DNA of 27,219 nucleotides from Thermoplasmata archaeon (lineage in GTDB: Archaea > Thermoplasmatota > Thermoplasmata > RBG-16-68-12 > JAFNFQ01), in the NCBI GenBank assembly GCA_041489255.1, contig JBGPQV010000028.1:1-27219 (forward strand), in the 5' to 3' direction. The notes below the pieces were generated by a model, which saw only the letters and a program-made list of their open reading frames with translations, ran no database searches and was not told the origin of the DNA. The stretch's first letter is position 1. The number at the start of each line of letters is the position of its first letter. The position numbers and the translations under genes were made by a program. Positions 2,329 to 27,078 of the stretch are shown one piece after another.

Positions 2329-2347
2329 CGTTTGTGGGGTCGTTTCC

Positions 2348-3658: not shown

Positions 3659-3680
3659 CTAGGCGGTCAATGATTCACCG

Positions 3681-9900: not shown

Positions 9901-10736
9901 GCCTTCTCGTGCCTGCCGGACTGGTACAGGGCCCTGCCAAGACTGAACCATAGATAGGAATCGCGGGACCTCTCCGGCGCAAGCCCCTGCTTCTCACCCT
10001 CCCGCTCGGTGCCGGTGGCCCTCCCGACCGCGAGTTCTCCCTCGTTCGTGACCTCGAACGGGACATAGTCGCTCTGGGCCGCTGTCCCCTTGAGCGAGAG
10101 GACCGCCAGCTTGCGGACTATCTTGTCCCCTTCCCTGATCCTGTCCATCTCGATCACGCCGTCGAACGGCTGGAGAAGCGTCGAGAGAGTCGTCGAATCA
10201 TGCATCTCCTTCTCGACGAGGAAAATCGACGTGAGGTTCTGTCTGCTCAACTTCGCCTTCGTCGCCTGGGCGAACGTGTGAACCTGCGAGAGATCGTAGA
10301 CGCTGAGAGCCGGAGAAAGGATCTCGACAACCGCCCTCCTCGGCTTGTCCTTCGCGAGGGAGGCTATCGCCCTCGTGATCGCGATGCCCACGTTGAGCAG
10401 GTCCAGCGAGACCTTGATGACCGGCCCGGCCTCTTCCAACTCGACGACTGATTCCTCTCGTTGACTGTACCAGTCCACCACCCTCAGGCGGCCCTCCTCG
10501 TAGAGCTTGTCCGGGTCGTAGCCCTTCGCCCTAAGTTCCTCGAAGAAGGTGGCTGGCGGCTTCGACGAAAGGACGACCAGGAGCGCCTCTCCATTCCTCA
10601 GACCCTCCGCGATGAATGTGCTGGCGAAGTAGTCCTTCTCGACCCCCGAGGGGCCTTCCAGGACGACCGTCGAACCTTCCGGGAGCCCACCCTGTATCAG
10701 CTCGTCGAAACCCTTGATGCCGGTCTTGACGCGCAC
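3882..10736 (-). CDS. Giant (2284 aa) membrane protein: degenerate RAD55/KaiC domain, TPRs, Zn ribbon, TNG repeats, TM, multi-domain ectodomain, PEF-CTERM
   Basis: N-terminus VKTGIKGFDELIQGGLPEGS with degenerate Walker A GPSGVEKD; TPR-like helices (WFSLGRALY, DALFAKATAL); CPMC...CPSCG; TM WKLYIVPLMAVALLMFPVLI; repeated IDG-x-F-x-DW domains; two ~359-aa S/T/W-rich repeats; C-terminal IPEF + TM + RWRKERRR. Confidence 0.9.
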   Translation of the reverse strand: MRVKTGIKGFDELIQGGLPEGSTVVLEGPSGVEKDYFASTFIAEGLRNGEALLVVLSSKPPATFFEELRAKGYDPDKLYEEGRLRVVDWYSQREESVVELEEAGPVIKVSLDLLNVGIAITRAIASLAKDKPRRAVVEILSPALSVYDLSQVHTFAQATKAKLSRQNLTSIFLVEKEMHDSTTLSTLLQPFDGVIEMDRIREGDKIVRKLAVLSLKGTAAQSDYVPFEVTNEGELAVGRATGTEREGEKQGLAPERSRDSYLWFSLGRALYQSGRHEKALVALESCVKIDPKNAEALNLIAESLEKLGRRKEAEKARLDAIAAKSAAAQRAESAPKPLQKPSRVFRILETSESRLKENPNDVDALFAKATALAALERYDDSMKALNELTKINHKYPGLWLLKSKIYESLGDEQKAKLCRERSQQIEDEIAAEEEVVREVSQLVCPMCSAPVKEGASACPSCGIPFMTGEAEQRPAPAPPARPDSRPEPKPEISKVAPSPPQKRKVPKGAVVSAPKGRTNGLTNGLGKGKGLTNGLRGRTNGLTNGLRGRTNGLTNGHRGRTNGLTNGLRGRTNGLTNGLRGRTNGLTNGLRGRTNGLTNGLRGRTNGLTNGMRGRTNGLVNGVRQGMGKVNGLTTKGRAEGVTNGLVNGLRDLRSGITNGLTNGNGFTNGLGSNRFRRQAKFYRWKLYIVPLMAVALLMFPVLIPGSIRTTSYVIEIDGSFGDWSSQRVISLRTDSGVSPNVRINRAGVVDNLDYLAFYVEVEGSMLQGGPDPQRLMDAVRIFLDTDGDASTGYLVKGLGAEFMVEIWGWGGTSQLAKLSSYALGASSQDNWGSWEQAAGLYAAVSANRLETEVPWLALMEQESIPVAVLFQAMSWDGQEQFSENVLSNMPGLLKISEKSLATATVSGTGIPLLAVELTSIEGDFSLTDLRVLIVGTAPLSDVTMLRLLDGTMTVLDSRVPASRLVSFHPLQPIRVTNGNLLTLTVAADTSLSDGKTLGLNLPMDDVVSPTRASGGPWAITRLNLTATYPLGYLGFVPTGRVIDGGFEDWTNPETDSIGESSTQGVDSLDIASFDANISGSAYFYLRLQGRALEGVATPQPSIPAPNTTTPTVADTDRDTVPDTVDLFPFDFNNDGTPDVDSNHDIDGDSLIDYPFGTDQWLNTTIPANFTVPYAGRFVSLYIGPTLRPPVNGEDSARFFVDVDNSTATGFLVGNIGADYMVELRGREGRVTNSGVWRHSGTTQGQWTWTLTGAASYALEQDRIEASGAIPGLNSDSRVSWATTDWRGSAGDIAQSSRRGTRGVFADGTVMGEAGEVDTYLDDAGRLQSASLKFTATEGLYAYAVEKNGMAAYFTGESDGQAFSLLSRGDLQFSWQPLAIGTLANGEFRLASAVTGVNANVAGNSIEYRGLFPGVQDRYTVQLNKVKHDIVLQDPSAVPAVGDMLVIRGKISLGNETALAVNGVAQSGDFATSGDIQVRSAGGNLLTLQAPFAYEQGDVEARVGGSFRVQKSDGGWLLSMEAPLEWFLDQKRAYPVILDPTGIIDTSSSTSPTGYHYQRKIFHDGTYFWAFYWDGTETQYEYSSDGMSWVNTRQQAFSNTGVQLASVWHYAGGSTVFIAGDKSSVSKDIYLRKGSISGTTITWAAADTALSISTNTLASKAPFICRSSTGYVWVTAMNKTGTGAYSITVFRSTSTDSVTAWVWSGNMLSSDVGNTYIEPEILPLSGGDVYALWYENGNIAGKKYTSSTSTWGSVESIDTAPASVYYAAASAVVDGWAYINIVYIANSPSGNVLYRQRTTSWNAATTLDSGSGNVYPALSRETGSGDLYALWRDSGNQIKGKKYSSGSWSTISIETSTISKSSLTSIYETSGSSNICWAWTDAPFTTRDVRFSVYSTSVKSVTVDTSTSSTPTQYSHQRRVFYDGTYFWAFHDDGTTTYYTYSSTGETWMNGYSAAFTSAGVKATSVWFYSSGSIKTVYVVGDDAASDKEVFARRGSISGSTITWDSEALVTISTKNMVSKIAFICRDTSGYIWVASSEQEADYNFAAIRSTSTDSVSAWGTFTPLMAADIANANIYGVIVPLASGNMYGLWYADGTIYGKMYTAGNSTWWTSQKTINTTSSGVSTKGPSVVVDSSYNINLVFSDSTGRVIYRQRTTSWGTATVVTTTTNNVYPSITLMSSDLYVFWIDSSNQITAKKYSGGSWSSISGIDTSTTAKSYLTTIYSASDTGTVCWLWGQGSGSGAYETKFSVIPEFEDMVVLVAGVGIFLPILGRWRKERRRAIKD
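3990..6110 (-). repeat. Tandem duplication of a ~359-aa beta-rich (propeller-like) domain
   Basis: IIDTSSSTSPTGYHYQRKIFHDGTYFWAF versus TVDTSTSSTPTQYSHQRRVFYDGTYFWAF. The DNA anchor gcccagaaataggt occurs at 6028 and 4951 (1077 nt apart). Further shared motifs: GSISGxTITW, RSTSTDSVxAW, YRQRTTSW, KKYSxGSWS. Confidence 0.85.
8868..9131 (-). repeat. Eight tandem 33-bp / 11-aa repeats (RGRTNGLTNGL) within a longer TNG-rich tract (~8720-9195)
   Basis: Read directly from the translation. The peptide is nearly invariant while third codon positions differ between units. Confidence 0.95.
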
Positions 10737-10737
10737 C

Positions 10738-11451
10738 CTAGACCACCCTCTCGTCGGCCTCGACGACTATGCCATTCTGAGTGATCCTCAGGGGGTGCTT
10801 CACCGTGTCGTGCTTGGTGAACCGCATCTTGCGGACCGTGATCGTCCTTCTGAGCTCACCCTTTGTCTCCTCCATGCCGAGGTGGATGAACGAGTCCGCC
10901 ACGAACTGCTCGAACCCCCATCTGGTGAGCCCGGCGTTCTCCAGCGACTCGGTGATCAACAGTGCCGTCACGTTTGTCTCACGGAGGTAGCGGGCGAACA
11001 GGAACAGCTCCTCCCGGAGGTCCCTCATCGACCTGTAGTGCAAGCCCATGGCAGAGAGCGAATCGACCACGAGGCGCTCGACGCTGTTCTTCTTGAGTGA
11101 ACTCCTGAGGAAGTCCTGGAGCTCGCCGAAGCCGAGCATCGTCCCGACATTCTTGTCCGCGACCCTGAGCTCCCCCAGATCGAGGAGTATCAGCTTGCCC
11201 ATCGACTCGAAGGGCGCCATCTCCATTCCGAAGGTTCCGAGGACCTTGTCGAGGTTGGCCCTAGGCTCCTCGAGCGACAGATACATCGAATTGTCCCCGT
11301 GGACTGTGGCCCCGCCATGGAAGAAGTGGAGCCCGAGCAGCGTCTTGCCGCTGCCCGCCGGACCCGAGACCAGGTTCACGGTTCCCTTTGGGAACCCGCC
11401 CTGGATGATCTTGTCGAGGCCTTCGACTCCGGTCGACAGGCGGTCAGGAAT
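10738..11451 (-). CDS. RAD55/KaiC-like single-domain ATPase
   Basis: Walker A GPAGSGKT, SLEE, Walker B LVVDSL, LLITE, RTITVRKMR. The frame extends upstream of the listed GTG (11379) through IPDRLSTGVEGLDKIIQGGFPKG to an ATT at 11451 preceded by GGGGTGA. Confidence 0.9.
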   Translation of the reverse strand: MPDRLSTGVEGLDKIIQGGFPKGTVNLVSGPAGSGKTLLGLHFFHGGATVHGDNSMYLSLEEPRANLDKVLGTFGMEMAPFESMGKLILLDLGELRVADKNVGTMLGFGELQDFLRSSLKKNSVERLVVDSLSAMGLHYRSMRDLREELFLFARYLRETNVTALLITESLENAGLTRWGFEQFVADSFIHLGMEETKGELRRTITVRKMRFTKHDTVKHPLRITQNGIVVEADERVV

Positions 11452-12091
11452 CGCCGGTCACCCCCAGGTCGGCCAGGATGTGTTGCCCGCACGTGGCGGT
11501 CGGATGGGTCATCATCGTCTCTCTCGCCGCGCCCTCGAAAATCCTAGCTGTCGCGACCTCGCCAAAGTTAGAGACGAACGCGCGCTTGATCTTCTCCATG
11601 AAATGGATGAAGACCGACCTGAGGTCCGATTCCGAGGAAGAGTCCTTGGCAGCACTCAACTCGCGAATCATCAGGTCGGTGAACGATGCGTCACGATTCC
11701 CCAGCTCCCTGACGACGTCTCTCTCGATTGATCGCCACCCCATCTTCTTCGCCTTGACGAAAAGCCTCTCGAGGAACTCCAGGTAGAAGGTCACGACCCG
11801 GTCGCGCTCGTCGGCTGGAGAGGTGTCCAGGTCAAGCTCCAGGACGATCCTGTCGCCCTTGAGCCTGTACTCGTACGCGGGGCGGGTCTTCCTCTGCCCC
11901 TTGCGTCGCTCGATCAGCCCGCACCCGTAGAGGCTGTTGAGGTCCTTCGTCGCGGTGCTGACGTGTATCCCCAGGTCCGCGGCGAGGTCGCTGGCGATTA
12001 GCCAGCCTTTCCTGCGCAGGCAGTCCAGGATGGGCAGACAGTGGTCGCTGGATAGCGTCCTTGCTGCTTCAAGGAATTCAGCACGTTTCAT
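11444..12091 (-). CDS. ArsR-like winged-helix regulator with C-terminal helical domain
   Basis: ILDCLRRKGWLIASDLAADLGIHVSTATKDLNSLYGCGLIERR...RPAYEYRL is a typical wHTH. It is the first gene of the operon and overlaps the ATPase start. Confidence 0.85.
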   Translation of the reverse strand: MKRAEFLEAARTLSSDHCLPILDCLRRKGWLIASDLAADLGIHVSTATKDLNSLYGCGLIERRKGQRKTRPAYEYRLKGDRIVLELDLDTSPADERDRVVTFYLEFLERLFVKAKKMGWRSIERDVVRELGNRDASFTDLMIRELSAAKDSSSESDLRSVFIHFMEKIKRAFVSNFGEVATARIFEGAARETMMTHPTATCGQHILADLGVTGDS

Positions 12092-12317
12092 AAGGGGGAT
12101 ACTCCAGGTTTGCTAGAGTTACTATCGAGATACTCTACGTTTTGTGGACTTAAGCCGGTTATGACCTGGCTATCGCCGGTGATTCCAAAACCTGAGAAGT
12201 GATTCCCTTCAAAAAAGCCGCGATTTCAGCGCGTAATGGAGAACCCAGCAGTAATGCCGCCCGGGTATCCCGCAATCCCCGCCAAAACCTCATTAACCCA
12301 CGTCGGTTTCACGGCGG

Positions 12318-12470
12318 GTGTTGAGCGAGGAGACGTTCTTCGAGATACTCTGCCGCGGCAAGGACAAGTGCGGCACGTTCGTGTCCGCGGTCAAGATCGA
12401 GCGCTGCCCCAAGTGCAGCTCCCCCAAAGTGCTGGTCAGGGAGATGTCGAGGGATCTCGAAAAGGACTGA
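12318..12470 (+). CDS. Small Zn-finger protein (50 aa; absent from the ORF track)
   Basis: GTG/TTG start: MLSEETFFEILCRGKDKCGTFVSAVKIERCPKCSSPKVLVREMSRDLEKD*, with C-x5-C and CPKC. Host-like codons; ATTAA ~26 nt upstream. Confidence 0.75.
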   Translation: MLSEETFFEILCRGKDKCGTFVSAVKIERCPKCSSPKVLVREMSRDLEKD

Positions 12471-12479
12471 TGTCGGACT

Positions 12480-13082
12480 CTACCTCGTTGTCCTGAGGAG
12501 GACCACCGCGACTTCCTCCGCCTCGCTCTTGTGGAAGTCGAACATGTGCGGTATGGGGAACTTGTAACTGAGGCTGTGGGTCGGCTTCCTTCCGAGCTCG
12601 CCCAGCTTCCTCCTGACGAACTCCTCGGTCTCCGCCTTGTGGAACGAGTACAGCACGTCGCCGACCTCAGCGGCCTTGTCCAGGAATGCCGCGTCCGCGT
12701 GGATGTTCTCCTTCTGGGCACCGAATGGCGGGTTCATTATCACGGTGTCGCACCTCTCCGGGAACTCGCCGAAGTCCATGGTGAGGAAGCAGATGTCCAC
12801 TCCGAGCGCATCCGCGTTCTTCATCGCCGCATCCACCGCCACCTCGTCCACGTCGAGCGCGACGACGTCGCCTGCCCCGAGAAGTTTCGCGCCGATCGCC
12901 AGGACGCCCGTGCCGCATCCGGGGTCGACGATCTTCTTCCCGTGGATGTCCCCCTGACCGTACGCGAAGTACAGGGCGTCTGCCGCAATCGTGGCGGGAG
13001 TCGAGTATTGCTCCAGCTTGGGGCTAGGATCCGGATGCGGACCGATCTTCTGTAGGAGCATCTCCAGCTCCTTCTGCTTCAT
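12480..13082 (-). CDS. METTL5-family (COG2263-like) SAM-dependent N6-adenine RNA methyltransferase
   Basis: LEQYSTPA, DPGCGTGVLAIG, MNPPFG, AFL, YSFH, FDFH motifs. Confidence 0.92.
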   Translation of the reverse strand: MKQKELEMLLQKIGPHPDPSPKLEQYSTPATIAADALYFAYGQGDIHGKKIVDPGCGTGVLAIGAKLLGAGDVVALDVDEVAVDAAMKNADALGVDICFLTMDFGEFPERCDTVIMNPPFGAQKENIHADAAFLDKAAEVGDVLYSFHKAETEEFVRRKLGELGRKPTHSLSYKFPIPHMFDFHKSEAEEVAVVLLRTTR

Positions 13083-13133
13083 AGGAGTTCGGAACGATTC
13101 CGGACTAATAGAGGCTTTGGTGACGACAGATCG

Positions 13134-13943
13134 TCACAGGCTACTCGGCATATCCCGCCAGTTTTTCACAGCCTGTTCGCCCTGCAAGGTCACGATCGCG
13201 GTGAAATCGGAGGGTCCGCGCCACTGTAGCTGGATCAAGCCTTCCTTCCCGAGCTCCTCCAGCTCCCTCTGCAGCTCGTCGTACCCCACTCCCTTGAACA
13301 TCAGGAACACGTCTGTCTTATTGACCCCGAGGCGACCCTTCTTCGCAAGGAAGGCGAGCAGGCGCTCCTTCAGACTCTGATCCACCCGCCTCGCCTCGTA
13401 ATGGTTGAACGCCCTTTCCACTATCTCGCCCGCAATGATATTGAACGCGTCCTCCACGAACTCGCCCGTCTTGGCGGACGTGTAGGCGTACGTGACATCA
13501 TACATCTGCACGACCTTCTCGACCTCGTCCTGCCGCAATGAACCCAGGCCCATGAGGTCTTTCTTGTTCACGAGTATGATGATCGGCATCTCTCCGGCGA
13601 TTTCCGTGGCGATGGAGATCCACTTGTGGAGTGACTCGAGCGTCTGCTTTCTCGTCACATCGCAGACCGCCATCAGCCCCTGGCACCCGTGGAAGAAACA
13701 TTCCTTCACGAGATCACCGAATCCCAGTTGGCCGACGATGTCGAAGACGCTGAGGTCCATCCTCACCTCGACATCCTCGCCATAGGCAATGACGAGTTCT
13801 ATCTTGCTGACTTTCGTGCCGAGCGTGTTGATGTATGCGTCCGAGAACTCGTTGAGGACGAACCTGCAGATGAGGCTCGTTTTGCCCACTCCGGAATCGC
13901 CGACGAGGGCCATCTTTGCCTTCATGGTCACCGGATGCCGCAT
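13134..13943 (-). CDS. Rab/Ras-like small GTPase with C-terminal winged-helix extension
   Basis: G1 GDSGVGKTS, G2 YINTLG, G3 DIVGQ, G4 NKKD, G5 TSAK, then ~85 aa with wHTH-like ELQRELEELGKEGLIQL...VTLQG. Confidence 0.88.
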   Translation of the reverse strand: MRHPVTMKAKMALVGDSGVGKTSLICRFVLNEFSDAYINTLGTKVSKIELVIAYGEDVEVRMDLSVFDIVGQLGFGDLVKECFFHGCQGLMAVCDVTRKQTLESLHKWISIATEIAGEMPIIILVNKKDLMGLGSLRQDEVEKVVQMYDVTYAYTSAKTGEFVEDAFNIIAGEIVERAFNHYEARRVDQSLKERLLAFLAKKGRLGVNKTDVFLMFKGVGYDELQRELEELGKEGLIQLQWRGPSDFTAIVTLQGEQAVKNWRDMPSSL

Positions 13944-14194
13944 GCTCTTGTCCTCTGTATTCGGGAGCTTGCTTTGTAGAGTGTTCTATTTAGTGGTGTT
14001 GGGGCTGTTATCAATGTCTGGAATACCTCGTAGACAGGGGACCATGCCGCCAGGGCATCGGCTCACGCCGGTTGTGGATACTTGTCCACAAACATCATGT
14101 GCGTCCCATCCACCAGATCCTTCCGCCTATGACGACGAACCGCAATCGGCAAGTATTATCAACAAGCGAGGGCTGGTTGGTCAAAGGTGACATC

Positions 14195-14674
14195 ATGGCA
14201 GTCTCAATCAAGGAAGGATCAAAGGCACCGAACTTCGCGCTTCTGGACACGGACAGGAAGATGAGGGATCTCAAGGAGTTCACCAAGGGCAACCTCGTCC
14301 TTGCGTTCTACCCCGGCGCTTTCACCTCGACCTGCACCAGCGAGATGTGCGCTCTCAGAGATTCCCTCGCGAGGATGAACTCCCTCAACGCCAACGTCTT
14401 GGCGGTGAGCGTGAACGACCCGTTCTCCAACAAGGCCTTCGCGGAGAAGAACGGGCTGAGCTTCCCGCTCCTCAGCGACTACAACCGCGAGGTCGTGAGG
14501 AAGTACGGCATCGCGCTGGACGACTTCGCCGGAATGAAAGGGTACACCGCCGCAAAGCGCTCCGTCTTCATCATCGACAAAACGGGGACGATCCGCTACA
14601 GGTGGGTCTCTGACGACCCGGGGAAGGAGCCCGATTACGGCGAGATAGAAAATAAGCTCAAAGAGACGAAGTAG
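14195..14674 (+). CDS. Peroxiredoxin (BCP/PrxQ-like)
   Basis: KAPNFAL, FYPGAFTSTCTSEMC (PxxxTxxC plus CxxxxC), FPLLSD, RSVFIID. SD-like AGGTGA lies before ATG 14195. Confidence 0.93.
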   Translation: MAVSIKEGSKAPNFALLDTDRKMRDLKEFTKGNLVLAFYPGAFTSTCTSEMCALRDSLARMNSLNANVLAVSVNDPFSNKAFAEKNGLSFPLLSDYNREVVRKYGIALDDFAGMKGYTAAKRSVFIIDKTGTIRYRWVSDDPGKEPDYGEIENKLKETK

Positions 14675-14906
14675 CCCAATCGGAAATGCGAACCTCAAGG
14701 GGGAAGCCTCTCGAATCATTCTATCTGAGTCAGCGACTGAGCCCATTTGGGGCGGACTCGAATCGATCCACAATCCTGATGCGGTCTCGGCTGCGTTGAG
14801 ACGGACAGAGGAATCTTGATGGCTTCGATGGGCTCGGCCAACGTAACTGGAGCCACGTACTTGAGCCTTCGGGAGTCTTGATAAGGAGGGCGCCAGGAAA
14901 TGCAGG

Positions 14907-16094
14907 ATGCAGAGAGTCGGACTATACATCAGGGTGAGCACGCAGGAACAGGCGGACAAGGGCTGGAGCATCGAAGCGCAGTACGTGGAGCTGAGGCGGT
15001 TCTGCGACTCGCATGAAGACTGGAAGGTCGTGAGGGCGTTCAAGGATCCCGGTTACACGGCAGCGAACCTCAATCGGCCGGGCATCCGGAATCTGCTTGA
15101 GTGCGCGCAAAGAGGGGAGCTCGACCTCCTGGTAGTCTGGCGGTACGATCGAATGAGTCGCGATAACCTGGACTTCCCCCTGCTTCTCCATCTCTTGAGG
15201 AAGGACAACGTTCGCGTCATGTCAGCAACGGAACCTAACGCGGAGGACGATTCGCCTCACGGCGAGTTCGTCGTGGGATTGCTCGGACTCCTCGCGACAC
15301 TGGAGCGAAAGACGAACGCCGTGCGCGTGAGCCTGGGCATGCGAGCGAGGGCGAAGGAGGGCATGTGGCACGGCGGCATTCCGGCCTACGGATACCATTA
15401 CAACGGCTCCACTGGTCGCTTGGAAGCGGACACCGAAGGCGCGAAGGTCGTGTCGCATATCTTCCACGAATACGCGAGACTCGGGGACCTGCATGAGTTG
15501 AAAGCAAACCTGCGCTCCCGGAATATCGTCGGTCGGAGCGGGAAGCCTTGGGCGGTGACTCAGCTGCGCAGGGTCCTGAGGTGCGAGACTTATCGCGGAA
15601 TGCTTCGCTGGGGCGATGTCGTGGCCGCAGACGAATCCCTTCGCCTCATCGACGACGAGACGTTCAGCAGGTGCCAGGGGCTCCTCGAACAGGAGGAGAA
15701 AGAGAACGGTTCGGGGGAGATTGACAGTGTAGAGCTAAAGCATGCGCACCTTCACAAGTCCGGACTGCCGTCGTGCCCCCGCTGTTCTTCCCACCAGGCC
15801 GTGAGGCGCAAGGGCGTCCGTTCGCTTGTCGACGGGACGACGATACGGCGTTACTGGTGCCGCGTCTGCAGAGGGGAGTTCGACGACAGGACCGCCGAGA
15901 TAGAGGTACCGCCATGCCCTGACTGCGGACGTCGCGAGCGAGTCCAGTACTATCGCCAGTGGGAGTCAAGTGACGGTATCCCCTTCCGGGTCTTCGGATG
16001 CAGGAAGTGCGGGAACCGCTTCCGGGTCCTCGTCCGCGACGTCGGGCAACCATTGAGCGGCGCCGCAGTTGCTGCAGTAGGCGCGGGCCCCTGA
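14907..16094 (+). CDS. Large serine recombinase 1 with two C-terminal Zn ribbons
   Basis: YIRVSTQEQ catalytic Ser, DRMSR, GGIPAYGY recombinase domain; C-terminal CPRC...WCRVC and CPDC...GCRKC. Confidence 0.92.
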   Translation: MQRVGLYIRVSTQEQADKGWSIEAQYVELRRFCDSHEDWKVVRAFKDPGYTAANLNRPGIRNLLECAQRGELDLLVVWRYDRMSRDNLDFPLLLHLLRKDNVRVMSATEPNAEDDSPHGEFVVGLLGLLATLERKTNAVRVSLGMRARAKEGMWHGGIPAYGYHYNGSTGRLEADTEGAKVVSHIFHEYARLGDLHELKANLRSRNIVGRSGKPWAVTQLRRVLRCETYRGMLRWGDVVAADESLRLIDDETFSRCQGLLEQEEKENGSGEIDSVELKHAHLHKSGLPSCPRCSSHQAVRRKGVRSLVDGTTIRRYWCRVCRGEFDDRTAEIEVPPCPDCGRRERVQYYRQWESSDGIPFRVFGCRKCGNRFRVLVRDVGQPLSGAAVAAVGAGP

Positions 16095-17072
16095 GAGTGG
16101 AAAACCGCAGCCGTGGCACCACTCGTCCCTGGGTATTGAGGAGCCTCGCGGGCGGTGGAACCGTGCGATCCGATGCCTTCGCCATTCCGAGCGACGCGCG
16201 TGGAGCTTCGACATAGTCTCATCGTCGAAGACTCTCAGGGACTCGTCCTTTGTGACGACGTCCTTGTAGCGCAACAACCCGACGTAGATCGGGTTGCCGA
16301 TGAGCCTCGAGACCGTCGCCTTGGACCACGGCTTGCCGCGCCGCGTCGTGATTCCTTCCCGCCGGAGGCGGCGTACCACGGTCCCCAGTTCACCCTTAGC
16401 GATCGCAAGGTCGACGATGTAACCAACGATGTCGACCTCCTTCTCGTCCGTCATCAGGCGGCCCGTCTTCTCATCGTACACGTATCCGTATGGGGGCGGA
16501 CCGCCGTGCCACTTGCCCTGCTTCGCGCGCCCGAGCGCCCCCATCGCGGCCCGGTCCTTGATCGTGGCCCTCTCCATCTCGGACATCAGCGCGAGCATGT
16601 CGAACAAAGCCTTGCCGACCGGAGTCGTCGAGTCGAAAGGCTCCGTCCCGCTCACCACTTCCACTTCCAGTTCCTTGAGGTACGCCCATACGTTCTGAAG
16701 GTCCAGGTTACTCCTTCCCAGGCGATCCACCTTCCAGACCAGCACGATGTCGAAGGTTCCTTGCTGGGCGAGGCCGAGGAGCCTGTCCAGCTTTGGTCTC
16801 TCCAAGGTTCCGCCGCTCTCGACCTCTCGGAACAGGCGCGTGCACCTCCCTCCCTTGTCACCGCAGAACGCTCTGAGGCGGGCTACCTGCTCGTCCAGGC
16901 TGAAACCCGAGGCTTGCTCCGTGGTGGAGACTCTCGCGTAGATGGCGACGCGCGCTGCTCGGCCGCTGTTCCGATAATCCGACCAGGCAAGACCTTCTTT
17001 GGGGGTTGTGGATTCCATCCCTGTTTTGCGACCCATCGCGACCTGCTGCCCAGGCGTCGCATCTGTTCGCAT
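15966..17072 (-). CDS. Large serine recombinase 2 with C-terminal Zn ribbon
   Basis: IYARVSTTEQ, ERPKL, VDRLGR, GGPPPYGY, NPIYVG; C-terminal CHGC...YCSNC. The start may be one of the downstream ATGs. Confidence 0.92.
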   Translation of the reverse strand: MRTDATPGQQVAMGRKTGMESTTPKEGLAWSDYRNSGRAARVAIYARVSTTEQASGFSLDEQVARLRAFCGDKGGRCTRLFREVESGGTLERPKLDRLLGLAQQGTFDIVLVWKVDRLGRSNLDLQNVWAYLKELEVEVVSGTEPFDSTTPVGKALFDMLALMSEMERATIKDRAAMGALGRAKQGKWHGGPPPYGYVYDEKTGRLMTDEKEVDIVGYIVDLAIAKGELGTVVRRLRREGITTRRGKPWSKATVSRLIGNPIYVGLLRYKDVVTKDESLRVFDDETMSKLHARRSEWRRHRIARFHRPRGSSIPRDEWCHGCGFPLSGARAYCSNCGAAQWLPDVADEDPEAVPALPASEDPEGDTVT

Positions 17073-17080
17073 GTCTGGTT

Positions 17081-17953
17081 TCAGCTGCCCCGTCTCCCCT
17101 TCCCCCTCTTCCTTGGCGTCCAGCTCACTATTGCCGGATAGATTCCCGGGACAACGATATCCATCCAGTGCGAAGCCCCGCGATAGAGGAGGTTATGGAC
17201 TATGCGGAACACCTGGCGCTTCGTCCATAGCTTCCCCTTTTTAGTGGGGATCCCCTCGCCATTGAGCCGAGCCGCTATCCACGCGAGCGACTCGCCTCGG
17301 CATCGCAACTCGCATATCCTGCGGACTACCGCCGCCTCCTGCTCGTTGACCGCCAGACCGCCATTGCCGACATCGTATCCATAGGGTGCGCTCATCCCGT
17401 TGAAGCCGCCCTTCATGGCCTTCTGGGTCATCCCGTGCCTGACCCGTTCGCCGATCATGCCGGACTCGAACTCCGCGATTGCAGCTATCATCTGCATGAA
17501 GAATCGACCGAGCGGCCCACGCGTGTCTACCGTCTCGTCAACCGAGGCGAAGTGGACCTTGTTGCGCTGCATCTCGCGCAGTATTGCGAGGAAGTCGAAC
17601 AGGTTCCTGTTCAGCCGGTCGAACTTGGCAACGACCACGACCCCGACCCGTACTTTGCAGCCGTCCACGGCGAGCCCATTCCACACGGCGTTCATCATTT
17701 CCTGGAAATCCGGTCGATTCGTCGAGCGGCCTGAGAAACCGTCATCGACATATTCGCGGAGCAGCCTGTACTCTTTCGCGCTGCAGTACGCCCTGATGCG
17801 CCTCTGCTGGGCTTCGAGCGAGAAGCCCTCCCGCGCCTGATCATCCGTGCTCACTCTCGCGTATGAAACAGCGAAGATTTCCGAATCCGGAAGAGGTCGT
17901 CTTTGCCTTGTTGTGGAATGAGCGTTCACTGCCTTCCTCATTCCGCGATGCAC
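17081..17953 (-). CDS. Serine recombinase 3 (resolvase + recombinase domain, no C-terminal Zn domain)
   Basis: YARVSTDDQ, DDGFSGRSTNRP, FDRLNR, APYGY, IAARLNGEGIPT; ends soon after YPAIVS. Confidence 0.92.
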   Translation of the reverse strand: MHRGMRKAVNAHSTTRQRRPLPDSEIFAVSYARVSTDDQAREGFSLEAQQRRIRAYCSAKEYRLLREYVDDGFSGRSTNRPDFQEMMNAVWNGLAVDGCKVRVGVVVVAKFDRLNRNLFDFLAILREMQRNKVHFASVDETVDTRGPLGRFFMQMIAAIAEFESGMIGERVRHGMTQKAMKGGFNGMSAPYGYDVGNGGLAVNEQEAAVVRRICELRCRGESLAWIAARLNGEGIPTKKGKLWTKRQVFRIVHNLLYRGASHWMDIVVPGIYPAIVSWTPRKRGKGRRGS

Positions 17954-18027
17954 CGGCCTGGGGGTTCTCGGTCCACGGTCGTCCCAAGATACTAATATGA
18001 CTTATCTATTGTCATTTGGCGGTAATC

Positions 18028-19476
18028 ATGTCAAATCCAAAACCCAGAGGCCGGAAACCGGGCTTCAAGGTCAAAGACCCTGCACGGCGCCTCCTTGACT
18101 GCTGGATAGGCTGCGAGTCGGAACTGAAAACCCGAACAACTCTGAAGCACGAGTTGAAGGACTCCCGATCCGAGCGCACGGTCGACAGATGGATCTCCTC
18201 GCTCGCAAGGAGTGGAACGTTGGAGCAAATGGGGCGTGGTCGATATCGCCCCTCAAAATACGACCTGCCCGCGACCGCGGCGCTCCTCCGGGCAGTCGAG
18301 AGCCGCGTTCTCTCCCAACAGACCGTCCCGCTGAACATTGACACGTGGGTGAATCTCGGCAATTTCCCGCCGTTGGCATCCCTTGACGCAACCGAGCTTG
18401 GAAGACTCGAGGAAGCAAAGAGGAAACTCACGGAGTTCATGAACCTGATGGAGTCCGTCCGTCGCGGCTTCTGGGCAAGGGAAGTTCAGCGACGACTTAG
18501 CAAATCCGATGATGAATTCACGAGACAGTTCGAGAGGCTCCTGCAGGAGATGAACAAGCTCGCCAGATGGTCTGCGGACCAAGGCAGGTCCGAGGAACAG
18601 ATGGAAAGCGAGGCCAGAGATGTCGATTCTTTGGCGGATCGGTTCGTGAACAGCGTTCAAGGTCGACTGATGCCACGGGACTTAACCGTCTATGTCTCGG
18701 AACCCTTCGTGGCGACCACCACACATCTATGCCCCGCACTGGAGATCGACACTAGCGACTGGATGTTGGGTGCTTTCAGGACCGGTGCGAACCAGTACTC
18801 AATGCTCTACCATTATCTGCGCCGGGCAGTCGAGCTGGGCGCTGAGATGGCCAGACAAGCCTATGAGAAACAGGGCTGGAAGCAGGACAGGATTGAAAGG
18901 GAACTGAGCAAACTGGAGCTCGATGACGTCCATGTTCAATCAAGGGTTCAGAAACTCGCCAAGGATGCTCTCTTGAACCTCACCGACACTTCGCTCAGGC
19001 AGTGGCGCGACCGGCTGAAGGAACTCAATGCTATAGCTAAAAGCCGGAAAAACGGTGAAGCCACAGTATCCTCAGAAGACATGCTGGCTGCCTTGAGTGT
19101 GCTCGGCCCGAAGGCTCGGAAGGAAGCCGCTCAGTACATGGACCGCCGCCGCTGGTTTAGAATGGCGATGAAACCAATCGAACAGATCAACAGAGCCGTC
19201 TTCGCGTCGGAGCATCAAACCGCTCAGCGGAGCCTCGATGACGAATCTCTTACCCGCGACCTGCTCTTCTCAAAGGCAACTCAGCATGCACAGGATTGCA
19301 TCGCCAGTCTGAGAAAGCAGCGCAGGGTGATCGAGAATGCAGACCGATCGGAGTTGCTCAAGCTGTCAACGCAGTACCCGGCCCCCCTGCAATCCCTCCT
19401 TGACCAATGGGGGATGTCATGCAAAGCCATTGAGGAATCCATTCGAGCAGAAGCACGAGAGTCCTACCATGGTTGA
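18028..19476 (+). CDS. Hypothetical protein, N-terminal wHTH-like region and long helical body
   Basis: Long ORF divergent from recombinase 3. SERTVDRWISSLARSGTLEQMGRGRYRP resembles a wHTH recognition helix and wing. TTATCTA sits ~26 nt before ATG 18028 (alternative start TTG 18016). Confidence 0.75.
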   Translation: MSNPKPRGRKPGFKVKDPARRLLDCWIGCESELKTRTTLKHELKDSRSERTVDRWISSLARSGTLEQMGRGRYRPSKYDLPATAALLRAVESRVLSQQTVPLNIDTWVNLGNFPPLASLDATELGRLEEAKRKLTEFMNLMESVRRGFWAREVQRRLSKSDDEFTRQFERLLQEMNKLARWSADQGRSEEQMESEARDVDSLADRFVNSVQGRLMPRDLTVYVSEPFVATTTHLCPALEIDTSDWMLGAFRTGANQYSMLYHYLRRAVELGAEMARQAYEKQGWKQDRIERELSKLELDDVHVQSRVQKLAKDALLNLTDTSLRQWRDRLKELNAIAKSRKNGEATVSSEDMLAALSVLGPKARKEAAQYMDRRRWFRMAMKPIEQINRAVFASEHQTAQRSLDDESLTRDLLFSKATQHAQDCIASLRKQRRVIENADRSELLKLSTQYPAPLQSLLDQWGMSCKAIEESIRAEARESYHG

Positions 19477-19915
19477 AGTGAATCCGCACAGGTCTTCCCG
19501 ATGGTCTCGCTGTTGTGCCACGTCTCACTGTCCCTCCCTCCCCTCGGACCCTCGGAATCGCAGTAGCAGCTACCGCAGGTTCGAGGGGGCGATCAGCCCT
19601 ACGAGCAATGTGTGCATGCGGGGAGGAACGTCACCTCCGTGCCCGTTGATCGGACGTTCGGGACGGAGGACCGCCGTTCGCAGCCAACTGGTCACTCTGA
19701 TTACCTTCTTCTACCACCTTACGCACCTCTTCCGCATCCGTTGTGAACGCCCTGACAATACGATGCGGACTCGACATGCACACCGTGTCGCCCTCGTGGA
19801 ATCCACGCAACGACCATGCGCCTACATCTTCCTCACACCCTGCTATCACGCTAATTGCGTCGTAACATCCGCCATTTGAGAGAGCTTAATAGGCTCTGAG
19901 TAAGAAGCTCCTAGC

Positions 19916-20410
19916 ATGAGCAAGATGAAACCGCAGAGAGAAATGAGGCCACCTCTTGCATTTCTGGAGTCGCTTGAGTGTGAACTCGACGGAGCAGACG
20001 AGGAATCCTTGTACAAGATGCACGAAGACTTTGCTACGCAAGAACTCGAAGAGGTGATCTATATCTTGGCTGCCAGAAGAAGACTGAAGGTTGTGTGCGC
20101 GTTGACGGATGGACCCCTGACACAGAAACACATCTCCAGAGCTACCGGGATAAAGTCAGGTCATCTGAGCCGGGTGTTGAAGCAGATGATTGAGGGAGGA
20201 ATAATCGTCTGCAGAACGCCTAAGCTGAGGAAGTTCAAAACTTACGGCTTTAGCGCAAAAGGGAATGTTGTCAAGCTTTACCTGATAACCCTTGTCTGGG
20301 AGAAGAAAGGGGGATTCTCAATGACACCCTTAGAGATGGAGTTCTATGGTAACCTGAAAGAGGTTCTCGATGAATCATCGGATGCCTCAGGATTTGGTGA
20401 GTGGTCATGA
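19916..20410 (+). CDS. Winged-helix transcription regulator
   Basis: RRLKVVCALTDGPLTQKHISRATGIKSGHLSRVLKQMIEGGIIVC...YGFSAKG; TTAATA ~28 nt upstream. Confidence 0.85.
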   Translation: MSKMKPQREMRPPLAFLESLECELDGADEESLYKMHEDFATQELEEVIYILAARRRLKVVCALTDGPLTQKHISRATGIKSGHLSRVLKQMIEGGIIVCRTPKLRKFKTYGFSAKGNVVKLYLITLVWEKKGGFSMTPLEMEFYGNLKEVLDESSDASGFGEWS

Positions 20411-20484
20411 GAGGACGCTCAGTCAGCCGACTATCACCAAGTGGCGGTGCTCCTTAAGTATCAAGAAAGGACATAGCGGGTAGT

Positions 20485-21423
20485 GTGGTTGTATTCCCAG
20501 CGATTGTTTACATTCTTGGTGCGGGCTTCTCTCGCTCTGCTGGAGGACCCTTGCTTCGAGAGATTCTCGACAAGGAAAACGATGCAAATAGGCTCGCGGT
20601 AGGACGTCTCTGGGAGAATCCTTTGTACGCCGCGTTAATGCGACTACATGATTCCCTACCAGAAGAAGAGCGTAACATAGAAGGTCTCTTCGATAGTCTG
20701 CAGAGCTCGAAATTCCTTGGCAGGCATGTTGGCCAGTATTCAGCTCAGACTCTCATAGACTTCCTAACGAAGTACTTAGGTCAGCTGATTCAAGAAAGAG
20801 TATCTGAGCCGAATGACATTGAAGTGTATGAACACTTTCGCGATGATATCCTCAGCCCCGAAGAATACGCCATTGTCACGTTCAACTATGACCTCGTCGC
20901 TGATCAACTTCTATTGCATGCCAGGGGCTCTCTGCACTACGGATTCCCGTCCAATCCTAAGTACCGTTATGATAGACTGAGACACGCGAGGAGACGTCCG
21001 TATCTTCTGAAGCTTCACGGCTCCCTAAACTGGGTAATATGCACAGTCTGCCGTACGATTTGGCTACGCGACCGTTACTCGACCGACCTGCATGGGAGAT
21101 CCTGTTTTCGGCCCAACTGCAATGGCAGGCTTAGGCTCCTCATAGTCCCTCCAGTGTGGAACAAGGAACCAGCTGCGAAGGATATTGATCTTCTCTGGAA
21201 GCGCGCGCGCATGTTTCTGGGGACAGCTGAGGAAATTGAGATCATTGGATTTTCCTTCCCTTCCGCTGACCGCCTAGCCATAGACATGGTTCGAGATTCC
21301 CTGAAGGCAAATATGGACGCACGGGTTAGCGTCCACAATGGACCGAACTTCGATTACGGACGCCTTTCCCGCATTCTTGGATGCCCGATTGTTTCACCTG
21401 GAAAACGGTTTGAGGATTTATGA
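20485..21423 (+). CDS. SIR2-like domain protein (SIR2_2 type) with Zn-ribbon insert
   Basis: ILGAGFS, VTFNYD, LKLHGSLNW, CTVC...CFRPNC, IVPPVWNK, IIGFSFPSAD. Confidence 0.88.
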   Translation: MVVFPAIVYILGAGFSRSAGGPLLREILDKENDANRLAVGRLWENPLYAALMRLHDSLPEEERNIEGLFDSLQSSKFLGRHVGQYSAQTLIDFLTKYLGQLIQERVSEPNDIEVYEHFRDDILSPEEYAIVTFNYDLVADQLLLHARGSLHYGFPSNPKYRYDRLRHARRRPYLLKLHGSLNWVICTVCRTIWLRDRYSTDLHGRSCFRPNCNGRLRLLIVPPVWNKEPAAKDIDLLWKRARMFLGTAEEIEIIGFSFPSADRLAIDMVRDSLKANMDARVSVHNGPNFDYGRLSRILGCPIVSPGKRFEDL

Positions 21424-21551
21424 CGGCTTCCCTGCCATGAGAGCGTGAATCGACTAATGAGGATAACGCCATTTGGCACCCCTATTGAAATTGGGTAAGA
21501 TTGACGATTCCAGTCCGCCGTACAGAAAAGCACGCTGCGTTCAACCTGCGG

Positions 21552-22307
21552 CTAACTCTTGGTGAATGGTGAAATGTCCTTCCAGTCGATACCCGACAAA
21601 ACCGCCAGAATCTCCTCCATTCCCCATGATGGATCCATGAATCTCAATGGATATTTCCTGGTTTCAAATTCTGGACGACCTCTCACCCATTCCTCGAAAG
21701 GCGCTATATCCCCTTCTGGACAAAAACCGAATGCAACGTCGTCTGGACCGAATGGTACATCTCCTCGGCTCCTCCATTCCCTTTCCCAATAGAATTCTCT
21801 TTGGCCGGTCGCCCAGGTTCCCATGGGCTCGATGAAGGGCGTGATCTCCGCGATAGGAGCACAATGGAAGACCTCGGGGCGAACATCTTCAATGAGCTTA
21901 TTGAGTGGATTGTTGTCCCCAAGGTTCCCATGGAGCCATCTGCGGCCAGGGGTTTTATCTATGTACCATACCGGATTGACCCCGAGGTTTCGCGCTCTCT
22001 GGCGCGTGAAAGCAATGCCGTATTTGGACAGATGGACTCTTCGCGGCGGAGTGAGGTCCTCCACGAACAGCCAGAGTTGATCCAGAGGAGCTTCGCTGAA
22101 AGAAACCACCATCTGAGATTGCTCCGCCAGTCGATGGCCTTTCACATATTCTTTCGCGATTCCCATTCCCGAGCGCGCCTCAAGCTTTCGATTCCGCAAA
22201 ATCGAAGCAAGATTGTTTCGGGCAGGTTCATCCTCGTAATCGCGAGTGAGATGGATGATGAACGTTGATAGGTCGTAGCGTCTCGACAAAGCTTCCCTGA
22301 TATGCAT
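21552..22307 (-). CDS. AbiGi/DUF2743-like protein (possible ADP-ribosyltransferase-like fold)
   Basis: IIHLTR, NLASIL, VSFSEAPL, YGIAF, NPVWY and FYWEREWR match my recollection of the AbiGi family. The H...S.S...ExE pattern is ART-like. Confidence 0.7.
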   Translation of the reverse strand: MHIREALSRRYDLSTFIIHLTRDYEDEPARNNLASILRNRKLEARSGMGIAKEYVKGHRLAEQSQMVVSFSEAPLDQLWLFVEDLTPPRRVHLSKYGIAFTRQRARNLGVNPVWYIDKTPGRRWLHGNLGDNNPLNKLIEDVRPEVFHCAPIAEITPFIEPMGTWATGQREFYWEREWRSRGDVPFGPDDVAFGFCPEGDIAPFEEWVRGRPEFETRKYPLRFMDPSWGMEEILAVLSGIDWKDISPFTKS

Positions 22308-22397
22308 GGCGCAGTCCCTTTGCCGCTCAAGTAGTCCCTGGAGATGACATAAGCGTTTGGTTGAGGGGGGTGAAAGTTTTTTCGTGGACTGCCCTCT

Positions 22398-23066
22398 TCA
22401 GCGAGATTTGAAGTACTCATCATCCTGCCGCTGAAGGCCATCCTCTCCGACGGAATCCGGCAACGTTTCTGGCTCGATTCCCTGCAGCTGTGGTCCCCCG
22501 GAAATACTCGGGCTCCCAGGGAGATAATTATTCCAACCGAATATCATGTTTATCAGGAATTCCACCGATGGGAAGAATGAGAGGCTCTGAGGGGCGGCAA
22601 TGGCTAGAACCATCAATACCGCGAGTTTGACAGTGTCGTCTTGGATTTCTTTTTGATAACCCTGAGCTGCATGACCCGTCAGACTGCAGCCGGCGAAAAG
22701 TCCGATGGCCACGAAATACCGCGCACCCATTTCATAAAGGTACGCCCTTCCGATGCTCACATCATGTCCATCGGAATTGACCAATATGGCTAAGTCTTGG
22801 ACGGAGTCGTAGTATTGGAGCAGCATCTGAACGGTCTGGAACGCAACATCAGTGATGTTCCGGATGCCGGGATCCAAGGAATCTATGATGACTTCCTGCC
22901 ACAGTCTATCAGCGCTTTCGGTATCTGTACCGCATATGTCGTATCGCTCCGGCGTCAACCATGTCATAATGCTGCTAACAAATATTGCCGCCACAATCAG
23001 GATTACGATAATCAAGACTGCTGCAATCAAAGGTGCCTGGCCTCTACCATCCCCTCGTATTCGCAT
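22398..23066 (-). CDS. Membrane/secreted protein with class III (pilin-like) signal peptide
   Basis: MRIRGDGRG|QAPLIAAVLIIVILIVAAIFV: basic residues, G, then Q and a hydrophobic helix. Start chosen at ATG 23066; the ORF extends to 23123. Confidence 0.6.
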   Translation of the reverse strand: MRIRGDGRGQAPLIAAVLIIVILIVAAIFVSSIMTWLTPERYDICGTDTESADRLWQEVIIDSLDPGIRNITDVAFQTVQMLLQYYDSVQDLAILVNSDGHDVSIGRAYLYEMGARYFVAIGLFAGCSLTGHAAQGYQKEIQDDTVKLAVLMVLAIAAPQSLSFFPSVEFLINMIFGWNNYLPGSPSISGGPQLQGIEPETLPDSVGEDGLQRQDDEYFKSR

Positions 23067-23179
23067 GCATGTAATGATGGGGTCTTCCCTTTTAAAATCG
23101 AGCCTAGGTCCGGTGAATCTCACACTTCAGTGATTTCACCCATAATCCTTACCGCCGCGAAATTCATAACGAATCGGAC

Positions 23180-23629
23180 CTACTCGACGGTTCCCGCTGT
23201 CACCGCATCAACAAGGACGCCTTCCCCGAGACGGCCCGTTTTCTCCCCGGCTTTGACGCGGTAGGTGTGTCGCCCTCCTTGGCGATCGATCCACCAGACG
23301 GTTAGGTCCATGAGGGCAATCCCCTCGCTACTCACGCTGCAATCGCACCCGCCCTCGTGCCCCTTCCGATCACAGGGAATCACGCGCTTTCTGCGACGGG
23401 CGCGCACAAAAGGAGAGGCGGACTCGGAAGACCTCGATTTTGCAAGACGGACAATCCCGATGGCCGACACGAAGACTGCAATGCCAATGAAAATAGAAAT
23501 GGCGTACCCGAAGGGCCAACCACCGAGCCGGTCGGATACAGGGAAGAAGGCGGCCAACAAAGCGAAGACTCCGAGAACCGCGGCGATGCCGATTTGCACA
23601 GTGGTGAGGCCTAGGAACTGGAATCGCAT
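23180..23629 (-). CDS. Hypothetical two-TM membrane protein with Cys-containing C-terminal domain
   Basis: MRFQFLGLTTVQIGIAAVLGVFALLAAFF...YAISIFIGIAVFVSAIGIV, then RARRRKR and CDRKGHEGGCDC. Confidence 0.6.
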   Translation of the reverse strand: MRFQFLGLTTVQIGIAAVLGVFALLAAFFPVSDRLGGWPFGYAISIFIGIAVFVSAIGIVRLAKSRSSESASPFVRARRRKRVIPCDRKGHEGGCDCSVSSEGIALMDLTVWWIDRQGGRHTYRVKAGEKTGRLGEGVLVDAVTAGTVE

Positions 23630-23790
23630 AACACACCGTACGCTGAACCGGCTACATGGGCCTTCCGGCTTCGGGAGCCTCGGTCGGCGACAGGCAGCGT
23701 GGCGACTGTCTTCCACCCCCACTGTCGTCGCGAAGAGCGATCTGTCGCGGAAGATTAAATTCATGTTCTGCTCTGTCTCTCGCGGCATCG

Positions 23791-27066: not shown

Positions 27067-27078
27067 CTTCAATCAAAC

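Follow-up and report, generated by a model that had tools for sequence, protein, structure and literature searches.

The subject here is a set of three adjacent serine recombinase genes, called A, B and C below, in a 27,219-nucleotide (nt) stretch of archaeal DNA, contig JBGPQV010000028.1 of assembly GCA_041489255.1 (‘the window’), which is the whole of contig C28 in a 2.74-Mb archaeal bin of 41 contigs (genome G000). Positions 1-14674 of the window carry ordinary host genes as judged by Pfam, among them those for a proteasome-activating AAA ATPase, a DUF2240 protein, KaiC-type proteins, a Ras-like GTPase and a peroxiredoxin, and the recombinase genes stand beyond the last of these. What are three such genes doing side by side at the edge of an island? 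The answer to which the evidence points, and which we hold with rather better than even confidence, is that they form the site-specific recombination module of integrative islands at the 3′ ends of tRNA-Val genes in one genus of Methanomassiliicoccales. All the genomes compared are metagenome bins; G001 is the sole congeneric one, and L numbers denote related loci, many of them metagenomic. The genes are these:

14907-16094, plus strand: recombinase A, 395 amino acids, with catalytic domain, recombinase domain and two tandem zinc ribbons (Pfam, 17-member family alignment)
15966-17072, minus strand: recombinase B, 368 amino acids, with one short zinc ribbon and an acidic C-terminal tail (Pfam, alignment)
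15966-16094: overlap of the convergent 3′ ends of A and B, 129 nt (129-177 nt in 7 of 7 complete triads)
17081-17953, minus strand: recombinase C, 290 amino acids, catalytic and recombinase domains only, with a basic C-terminal tail (Pfam, alignment); alternative start at the ATG at 17941, four codons in

All three proteins match Pfam Resolvase (PF00239, E 1e-30 to 2e-40) and, above cut-off, Recombinase (PF07508, E 2e-11 to 3e-13). Pairwise they are 29-40% identical, and R9-V10-S11-T12 and D81-R82-x-x-R85 (numbering of A) are invariant in their three-way alignment, with R-V-S-T and D-R-x-x-R also kept across the separate A, B and C family alignments. It is past the recombinase domain that they part company. 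Of the ribbon cysteines of A, C290/C293/C318/C321 and C337/C340/C365 are invariant in the 17 A-type proteins and C368 is nearly so, and residues 336-373 match Pfam Zn_ribbon_TFIIS (25.6 bits against a cut-off of 21). The family alignments give B a single compact C-x2-C...C-x2-C motif, and show C stopping shortly past the recombinase domain with no zinc motif. PF13408, the zinc-ribbon family of large serine recombinases (LSRs), for which bacterial relatives carry precomputed matches, is not matched by A, B or C. In the AlphaFold model of A (pLDDT 77.6) residues 299-375 are beta strands only, forming two beta zinc ribbons, with no coiled coil or long helical insert in that region, and a resolvase/invertase-type C-terminal helix-turn-helix (HTH) was not found by Pfam in any of the three, the recombinase domain being in its place.

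The best PDB matches of the A model (Foldseek) are large serine integrases, those of SPbeta (9dxd, E 8e-16), Bxb1 (9iu2) and phiC31, and the A profile matches both the TP901-1 catalytic domain (E 5e-29) and the C-terminal DNA-binding fragment of A118 integrase (4kis, E 1e-6). The modeled structure of A is that of a large serine recombinase that has no coiled coil. Since the three proteins have the catalytic and recombinase domains of LSRs and lack the zinc ribbon with coiled coil, they are termed LSR-like here rather than typical members. An earlier note on this DNA, made from its letters alone, had described three paralogous resolvase-plus-recombinase-domain genes with catalytic motifs kept, bearing two ribbons, one and none, and lacking the canonical coiled-coil zinc domain; Pfam, the alignments and the model agree with it on each of these counts.

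C lies upstream of B on the same strand across an 8-nt gap, and the two probably make up one operon convergent with A. The tails of both are peculiar to triads. That of B has a net charge of -6 to -9 in 8 of 8 triad B proteins as against +1 and +4 in two non-triad relatives, and that of C is at +6 to +14 in 7 of 7 triad C proteins as against -4 to +6 in nine single relatives. Adaptation of B and C to the module is suggested by these triad-specific tails, with the caveat that the B tail is encoded antisense to the A tail and is not free in its composition.

The arrangement recurs. A family search of G000 gave ten resolvase-domain genes, including a second triad, on contig C25, with identical order and orientation (identity to the window triad 70% for A, 67% for B and 44% for C), and G001 has one triad, adjoining its peroxiredoxin orthologue. 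A single-protein scan of genome contigs gave no match, and an alignment of A-type proteins was used as query instead to fetch related loci. Of the 18 examined, five have complete A(+) B(-) C(-) triads (L035, which is G001's, L046, L047, L048 and L050), making seven with both G000 copies counted, all identical in order and orientation. Three more are partial. L057 is a 2.4-kb contig that has B in full, A in part and only the start of C, where it ends; L049:1-1650 is a decayed module with A intact, B missing its N-terminal half and C absent, its homology to L047 stopping mid-B; and in L059:1996-6167 deep-branching A-like and B-like genes converge from 2 kb apart with three small open reading frames (ORFs) between them and the contig ending just beyond, which hints that the A/B pair is older than the triad. 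The remaining ten have A only: in L052, L054, L036 and L038 roughly 2-8 kb downstream of A contain neither B nor C, and the other six are short contigs or run out within about 1 kb of A. In a survey of 79 species genomes of the order, only G000 and G001 have A-type genes at 70% identity or above.

A maximum-likelihood tree of 55 recombinases, from which nine fragments or duplicate rows had been removed beforehand, places each paralogue in a clade of its own by position, with sub-tree topologies that broadly agree. The triad A proteins nest within a clade of A-only relatives, and the B clade is sister to the A clade (support 100/99). C nests elsewhere, in a clade of single recombinases of about 270-290 amino acids from other genomes of the order; the A query found a match in 32 of 41 such genomes, most having one match of about that length. 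G000 itself has single recombinases of this size, with catalytic and recombinase domains, at C4:77478-78344 and C18:33011-33865 (51-57% identical to the C of the C25 type), that on C4 being syntenic between G000 and G001 except for a 450-bp indel just upstream. The ratio of nonsynonymous to synonymous substitution rates (dN/dS) is 0.10-0.26 in 17 of 18 gene comparisons, dS being saturated in the other. A, B and C are all under purifying selection, and the triad is a conserved unit rather than a set of relics; the earlier note had proposed searching other genomes for it, and its alternative of three genes that never co-occur elsewhere is contradicted by the seven complete loci.

The edge of the island was drawn from several directions. 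Synteny with G001 (88% DNA identity) ends at 14678, 4 nt past the peroxiredoxin stop codon, and GC content, about 0.60-0.63, is 0.49-0.53 beyond about 19.5 kb of the window. The exact boundary, the left attachment site (attL) with its host-side (B) and element-side (P′) arms, comes from a comparison of junctions, taking in an empty site (G001:C46), two attL sites (C25 and the window) and three attR sites (C8, C17 and G001:C3):

14198-14674, plus strand: peroxiredoxin (AhpC/TSA), the host gene that borders the island (Pfam AhpC-TSA, E 2.7e-34 from ORF residue 49; ORF listed from 14072, likely start the ATG at about 14198)
14675-14828: host-side spacer, the B arm of attL, in common only with L047 (87%), where a triad occupies the same site
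14829-14835: crossover interval, the 7-bp core TGGGCTC common to attL, attR and both tRNA-Val 3′ ends
14829-14906, plus strand: element-side P′ arm of attL, a 78-bp non-coding block reaching to the A start codon, conserved across triad-type loci

The synteny stop and the GC drop bear out that the triad lies at an island edge, as the earlier note had it. The P′ block is near-identical in seven triad-type loci and altered yet conserved in an eighth (L050), while the A genes have only about 70% DNA identity, and its left boundary is sharp at 14829, the flanks beyond falling into unrelated groups. There is one copy per triad, and no second copy of the P′ motif, inverted or direct, was found in the genome or in the loci searched with up to 6 mismatches in 26. 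A bounded unit akin to recombinase-in-trio (RIT) elements or insertion sequences (IS) was rejected because of this single conserved site per module. An Rfam search of the block gave no match at E up to 1, and it probably carries the expression signals of A as well. At the corresponding place, from the peroxiredoxin stop to the P′ block, unrelated DNA fills 3.3 kb in G001:C36 (L027:10531-13864), compared with the 154-nt spacer of the window and L047, and L051 has 750 nt there with a 193-amino-acid ORF; the extra DNA may be what remains of earlier insertions into this tRNA site.

It is the second island of G000, that with the C25 triad, for which the empty site is at hand. In G001:C46 the left flank of C25 (99% over 6167 nt) is joined directly to the counterpart of G000:C8:38543 onward (96% over 8.2 kb), and at the join is an intact tRNA-Val(GAC) with its 3′ end facing the flank. 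The attachment site attB is thus the 3′ end of tRNA-Val(GAC), with attR on another contig, and attB (G001), attL (C25) and attR (C8) share a 10-bp core spanning the 3′ strand of the acceptor stem. In L048 the site is occupied and the flank matches the empty allele at 98% identity, so that insertion is polymorphic among close relatives. A locus that was fixed, vertically inherited and without an empty site, the other outcome that the earlier note had held out, is not what is seen. The flank in question, G000:C25:20499-26665, is 99% identical to G001:C46 while the core region of the window is 88% identical to G001, a disparity that may reflect recent recombination, a mixed population or binning effects.

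For the window's own island the tRNA must be sought elsewhere: a tRNA gene search within the window found none, the tRNA being on another contig. A conserved element-side P arm, about 54 nt long, lies directly against tRNA-Val(GAC) on C8, tRNA-Val(CAC) on C17 and tRNA-Val(CAC) on G001:C3. Since the one attR of G001 stands at tRNA-Val(CAC) and its tRNA-Val(GAC) site is empty, the attL of its single triad, on the peroxiredoxin side, must pair with tRNA-Val(CAC). In 7 of 8 more distant relatives, moreover, the orthologue of the window's Ras-like GTPase gene has tRNA-Val(CAC) within 0.2-4.4 kb, on the expected (island) side and strand, a linkage which indicates that the window's island split tRNA-Val(CAC) from the GTPase/peroxiredoxin neighborhood. 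The island accordingly sits in tRNA-Val(CAC); its attL would pair with the attR on C17, and it would run from 14829 past the contig end to a right end at G000:C17:1889 (C17:1-1889) beside that tRNA gene, at least 14.3 kb in all. The 14675-14828 spacer, of which no copy was found elsewhere in G000 or in loci other than L047, would naturally adjoin the 3′ end of tRNA-Val(CAC) when that site is unoccupied. The expectation that a relative lacking the island would define an attB downstream of the peroxiredoxin held insofar as an empty relative does define a site; attB is a tRNA-Val 3′ end, however, and one that the island has displaced from the peroxiredoxin and GTPase genes.

One module type uses either tRNA-Val site across genomes, window-type modules being found at the tRNA-Val(GAC) site in L046 and C25-type modules at the tRNA-Val(CAC) site in G001 and L047. 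The shared core is 7 bp (TGGGCTC) at the window site and 10 bp at the tRNA-Val(GAC) site, and the first 11 nt of the element arm are one base off each of the two tRNA-Val ends of G000 and equal to the tRNA-Val(CAC) end of two relatives. Movement between lineages is suggested too by comparisons of elements with their surroundings. L051 and L047 have 97% DNA identity over the 830 nt of L051 (P′ arm and 5′ part of A), with flanking host genes 68% identical in DNA and host proteins 62-76% identical to those of G000; G000 and G001 have 95% identity across 7.45 kb of the C25-type element, against 88% in the adjacent core DNA. Element identity above flank identity speaks for horizontal spread.

When the P and P′ arms are joined computationally to rebuild attP, the conserved region amounts to about 130 nt (about 54 nt of P arm and 78 nt of P′ arm), and nested inverted motifs come together across the join. 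The inner pair, AGTTAC / GTAACT (8 bp perfect in the C25 element), is centered between core positions 6 and 7, so that the dyad center falls inside the core; an outer GGCGCC pair stands about 57 bp to each side of that center, and a middle inverted pair is offset by about 4.5 bp. For comparison, the abstract of PMC12286644 puts serine-integrase sites at roughly 40-50 bp, well short of this conserved region.

Who then recombines? No tyrosine recombinase (PF00589) is encoded on C28, C25, C8 or C17, the four matches in the genome being on C18 (two), C6 and C14, and no ORF runs across the core at attL or attR in the manner of the split integrases of SSV-type elements. Three different left flanks meet the same core in A-only loci L052, L053 and L055, and in A-only L054 the arms are laid out similarly around another tRNA-like core. 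The shared core of A-only relatives ties A to this attachment site, and catalysis is placed with A because its gene is directly beside the crossover, its model is integrase-like and A-only relatives occur at the same core. A is likely the integrase, and A alone may be enough for integration.

On this reading the islands, at least 14 kb and up to several tens of kb in size, insert at tRNA-Val 3′ ends and always carry at the attL end a module of about 3.0 kb that consists of the P′ arm, A and the convergent C-B operon. A, encoded beside the crossover, would catalyze exchange between attP and attB inside the tRNA acceptor-stem sequence, and the tRNA would be regenerated at attR; the 7-bp and 10-bp cores and the position of the dyad center are compatible with such an exchange. 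Tetramer formation, synapsis and direction are governed by the coiled coil in bacterial serine integrases, according to PMC11722253. A, B and C appear to be without the insert that exerts this control, and the simplest proposal would have B and C supply it, for instance through binding to conserved accessory portions of the unusually long attP or through promotion of excision. B and C are partners co-inherited with A, possibly in a heteromeric machine.

Several things weigh against so tidy an account. Neither island is closed, both running off contig ends, and the pairing of the window attL with the C17 attR is inferred, without bridging sequence; an integrase of another kind might possibly lie within the unassembled part. 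No replication, conjugation or virion genes were recognized in the cargo ORFs scanned, the islands being incomplete. Over window positions 12000-27219 no circular or empty-site joint was seen in four public runs, for which assembled contigs only were searched, so that the circular junctions for which the earlier note had proposed to look did not turn up; in runs X1 and X2 the loose end before 14829 belongs to the left flank of the C25 triad and thus marks a branch point of the assembly. The dyad symmetry of attP is moderately above chance, arm shuffles reaching the observed symmetric run in 44, 28 and 269 of 5000 for the three elements, and so is suggestive rather than strong, and the P′ block may be conserved partly as promoter or leader of A. 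That A-only relatives have the same core argues that integration as such can do without B and C. Nor is the module strictly co-inherited: window-type C stands at the end of a very long branch (1.31 substitutions per site), and in comparison with L046 the window genes have dS values of 0.16 (A), 0.13 (B) and 0.79 (C), which makes the module a mosaic. Finally, with G000-G001 flank identity ranging from 88% to 99% in metagenome bins, mis-binning or a mixed population is possible.

One may be tempted to go further, as the earlier note did with its heteromeric machine, and have A, B and C act in one mixed complex with all three needed for integration and excision, as CcrA and CcrB are for the staphylococcal cassette chromosome (SCC). 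The conserved order, overlapping genes and matching phylogenies are what such a complex would leave, as are catalytic residues and purifying selection in all three proteins and the oppositely charged triad-specific tails of B and C, and the conserved attP, at about 54 + 78 nt and with nested inverted motifs, is longer than the sites of roughly 40-50 bp described in the abstract of PMC12286644. An obligate heteromer sits poorly, however, with A-only relatives that share the junction core and with the exchange of C independently of A and B in the window lineage, and we regard it as tentative and on the unlikely side. The same reserve is due to its fullest elaboration, in which a mixed A/B/C synaptic complex on the nested-dyad attP of about 130 nt would replace the logic of coiled coil and directionality factor, the convergent overlapping A and C-B units would act as an integration/excision switch, and the whole would be the first archaeal serine-integrase integration system, and a tRNA-directed one; as a conjecture it is doubtful.

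A looser partnership would have A as the integrase with B and C at work on other sites, in resolving multimers of an excised replicon or inverting cargo. The origin of C in a clade of single recombinases of about 280 amino acids, one copy of which is syntenic between G000 and G001, the presence of a single match of that size in most genomes of the order (32 of 41 matched by the A query) and the existence of A-only elements would all suit such a division of labor. Yet in the assembled 12.6 kb of the island inverted or direct repeats are at chance level only, none of them convincing, B and C have the integrase-typical recombinase domain rather than the HTH of small resolvases and invertases, and their triad-specific tails suggest adaptation to the module; taken together these make separate duties distinctly unlikely. 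Of the ‘integration/excision or inversion machine’ that the earlier note had imagined, a recurrent module at the edge of a mobile element is borne out; the inversion part, with no convincing inverted repeats in the assembled island, is not.

Should the three be independent integrases, each with its own target, for instance different tRNA-Val isoacceptor genes, the finding of same-type elements at tRNA-Val(GAC) or tRNA-Val(CAC) would follow readily, and yet one attP core a single base off each tRNA end explains both sites, each module has one conserved site only, and there is no conserved non-coding block by B or C, the homology between the window and L046 ending inside the 5′ extension of C; we think this very improbable. 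Least credible of all is that the genes are bystanders, leftovers of successive insertions at the same tRNA or idle beside an unassembled integrase of another family, for although both islands are open-ended, a decayed copy is known (L049, with A, truncated B and no C) and tandem accretion at tRNA sites is common, the overlapping frames, the same order in seven loci, dN/dS of 0.10-0.26, intact catalytic motifs and the lack of any tyrosine recombinase on the four island contigs all tell against it.

If the preferred reading is right, that of a recombination module for tRNA-Val-directed islands with A as the likely integrase, how new is it? The closest analogue is the serine-integrase triplets of streptococcal integrative and conjugative elements (ICEs) (Ambroset et al. 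2016, PMC4701971). There, three adjacent serine recombinase genes at one extremity of the element encode Resolvase and Recombinase domains, some members are without the PF13408 zinc ribbon, the direct repeats at junctions are very short, and the paralogues cluster by position in the triplet, implying an ancestral three-gene module, in all of which the archaeal triad is similar. It differs in its host and in its target, a regenerated tRNA 3′ end in place of the disrupted protein genes (mutT, traG, hsdM) that PMC4701971 gives for the ICEs, and in having A convergent with C-B with overlapping 3′ ends and no recognizable conjugation module, the islands being incomplete. Since A and B fall within clades confined to Thermoplasmatota, an origin independent of the ICE triplets is suggested by a tree made without streptococcal sequences.

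With the large serine integrases of phages (phiC31, Bxb1, A118/LI, SPbeta, TP901-1) the triad proteins share homologous, structurally matched catalytic and recombinase domains, a gene beside attP, and a short identity core with a non-palindromic central dinucleotide. The phage enzymes are of about 450-700 amino acids; A, B and C, at 290-395, are without the coiled-coil insert, A has two plain zinc ribbons, three paralogues stand where phages have one enzyme and an unrelated directionality factor, and attP is about 130 nt. RIT elements are bacterial, a conserved trio of tyrosine recombinases that moves as a unit and has long inverted repeats at its ends, and here also a trio of paralogous recombinases moves together, but the family is that of serine recombinases, with one site per module, and the module makes up one end of a larger island. 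Small resolvases and invertases (Tn3, gamma-delta, Hin, Gin) are different in another way, the triad proteins having no HTH and the island no convincing inverted repeats.

CcrA and CcrB of staphylococcal SCC are likewise paralogous serine recombinases on a non-conjugative island, though they are two rather than three, with another target and in another domain of life. In SCC-type elements a gene for an MCM-like helicase adjoins the recombinase genes, according to PMC6972569, and C25-type elements share, 1.6 kb from the triad, the gene of a 758-amino-acid protein with possible winged-helix (wHTH) and P-loop-like features. Read by eye, its consensus would have an N-terminal wHTH, a deviant Walker-A-like motif and then an hhhhDE motif; an Atlas language-model lead to MCM/AAA scores 0.88, below the 0.9 line and hence a lead only, Pfam returned nothing and the structure model is poor (pLDDT 54.6), so the helicase assignment is unproven. 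Archaeal plasmids and viruses with tyrosine integrases (SSV type, pT26-2 family) resemble the islands in inserting at tRNA 3′ ends, tRNA-Val included, in having the tRNA end duplicated in the element and in their ORFan-rich cargo, as described in PMC8371274 and PMC6972569; they differ in recombinase family, the island contigs having no tyrosine recombinase and no ORF across the core.

The archaeal setting, on which the earlier note had remarked by observing that archaeal elements mostly use tyrosine integrases, stands: the genomes of the same order are Methanomassiliicoccales. Integrative elements of archaea have been described almost exclusively with tyrosine integrases, and the 2021 review PMC8371274 mentions archaeal serine recombinases as seen in transposons and never investigated. 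In the open full-text literature, with subscription journals outside its scope, no description was found of an archaeal serine-recombinase triad or of serine-integrase insertion in archaeal tRNA genes. What is new relative to known systems is the archaeal host, the regenerated tRNA target, the lack of a coiled coil, the tandem ribbons of A, the convergent overlap and the long attP. With attB, attL and attR mapped and attP open to reconstruction, the system is directly testable. It would show how serine recombinases choose partner and direction without the coiled-coil control device, and why modules of several paralogues arise repeatedly, as in ICE triplets and CcrAB. The host is a methane-cycle archaeon with what is probably a serine route in place of the enzyme family that archaea usually employ for integration, and short enzymes (290-395 amino acids) with a defined tRNA-end target would be candidate genetic tools for methanogen-related archaea.

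The rest of the window beyond C is one feature:

17954-27219: island cargo to the contig end, low in GC (Pfam, PHROGs, PADLOC)

It holds ORFans and genes for a wHTH protein, a SIR2-like protein, an AbiGi-like protein and a methyltransferase. A 486-amino-acid protein of the window gave no language-model lead, and the cargo conserved among C25-type elements had no match in PHROGs, PADLOC or Pfam. No protein similarity was found between the cargo of the window and that of other triad loci, cargo differing wholly between element types. IMG/VR lists the L046 contig as viral; no virion gene was seen, and the listing was given no weight. The attR side of the second island has a LuxR-type HTH gene, an Eco57I-like restriction-modification gene, TIR and Piwi genes and a pst phosphate-transport operon, and those 20 kb have no DNA counterpart in G001. 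All told, the elements look like defense- and ORFan-rich integrative islands. The TIR-domain gene (463 amino acids) is directly upstream of the Piwi-domain gene (527 amino acids) in G000:C8:28500-35200 (L128, L130), a short-Argonaute, SPARTA-like pair, which the restriction-modification gene, Eco57I/MmeI-like and of 1070 amino acids, adjoins.

The contig terminates in a repeat (27079-27219), at the start of which several runs have loose ends and because of which the assembly breaks inside the island. In run X1 the summed contig word depth is 20.3 in the bin 26732-27219 as against 13.6 elsewhere, one contig over 27079-27219 being at 29.8.

Two further observations concern other parts of the genome. 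At G000:C14:7408-9132 and G000:C18:17907-19593 a tyrosine recombinase match lies within about 1 kb of a short resolvase-domain match, and these neighbors may be another kind of recombinase pair. Among the host genes of the window, the minus-strand ORF at 3882-10736 encodes a protein of 2284 amino acids that has a KaiC-type ATPase at its N terminus and TPR repeats and shares 82% identity with its orthologue in G001, and it adjoins a second KaiC-type gene (10738-11379) and a wHTH gene.

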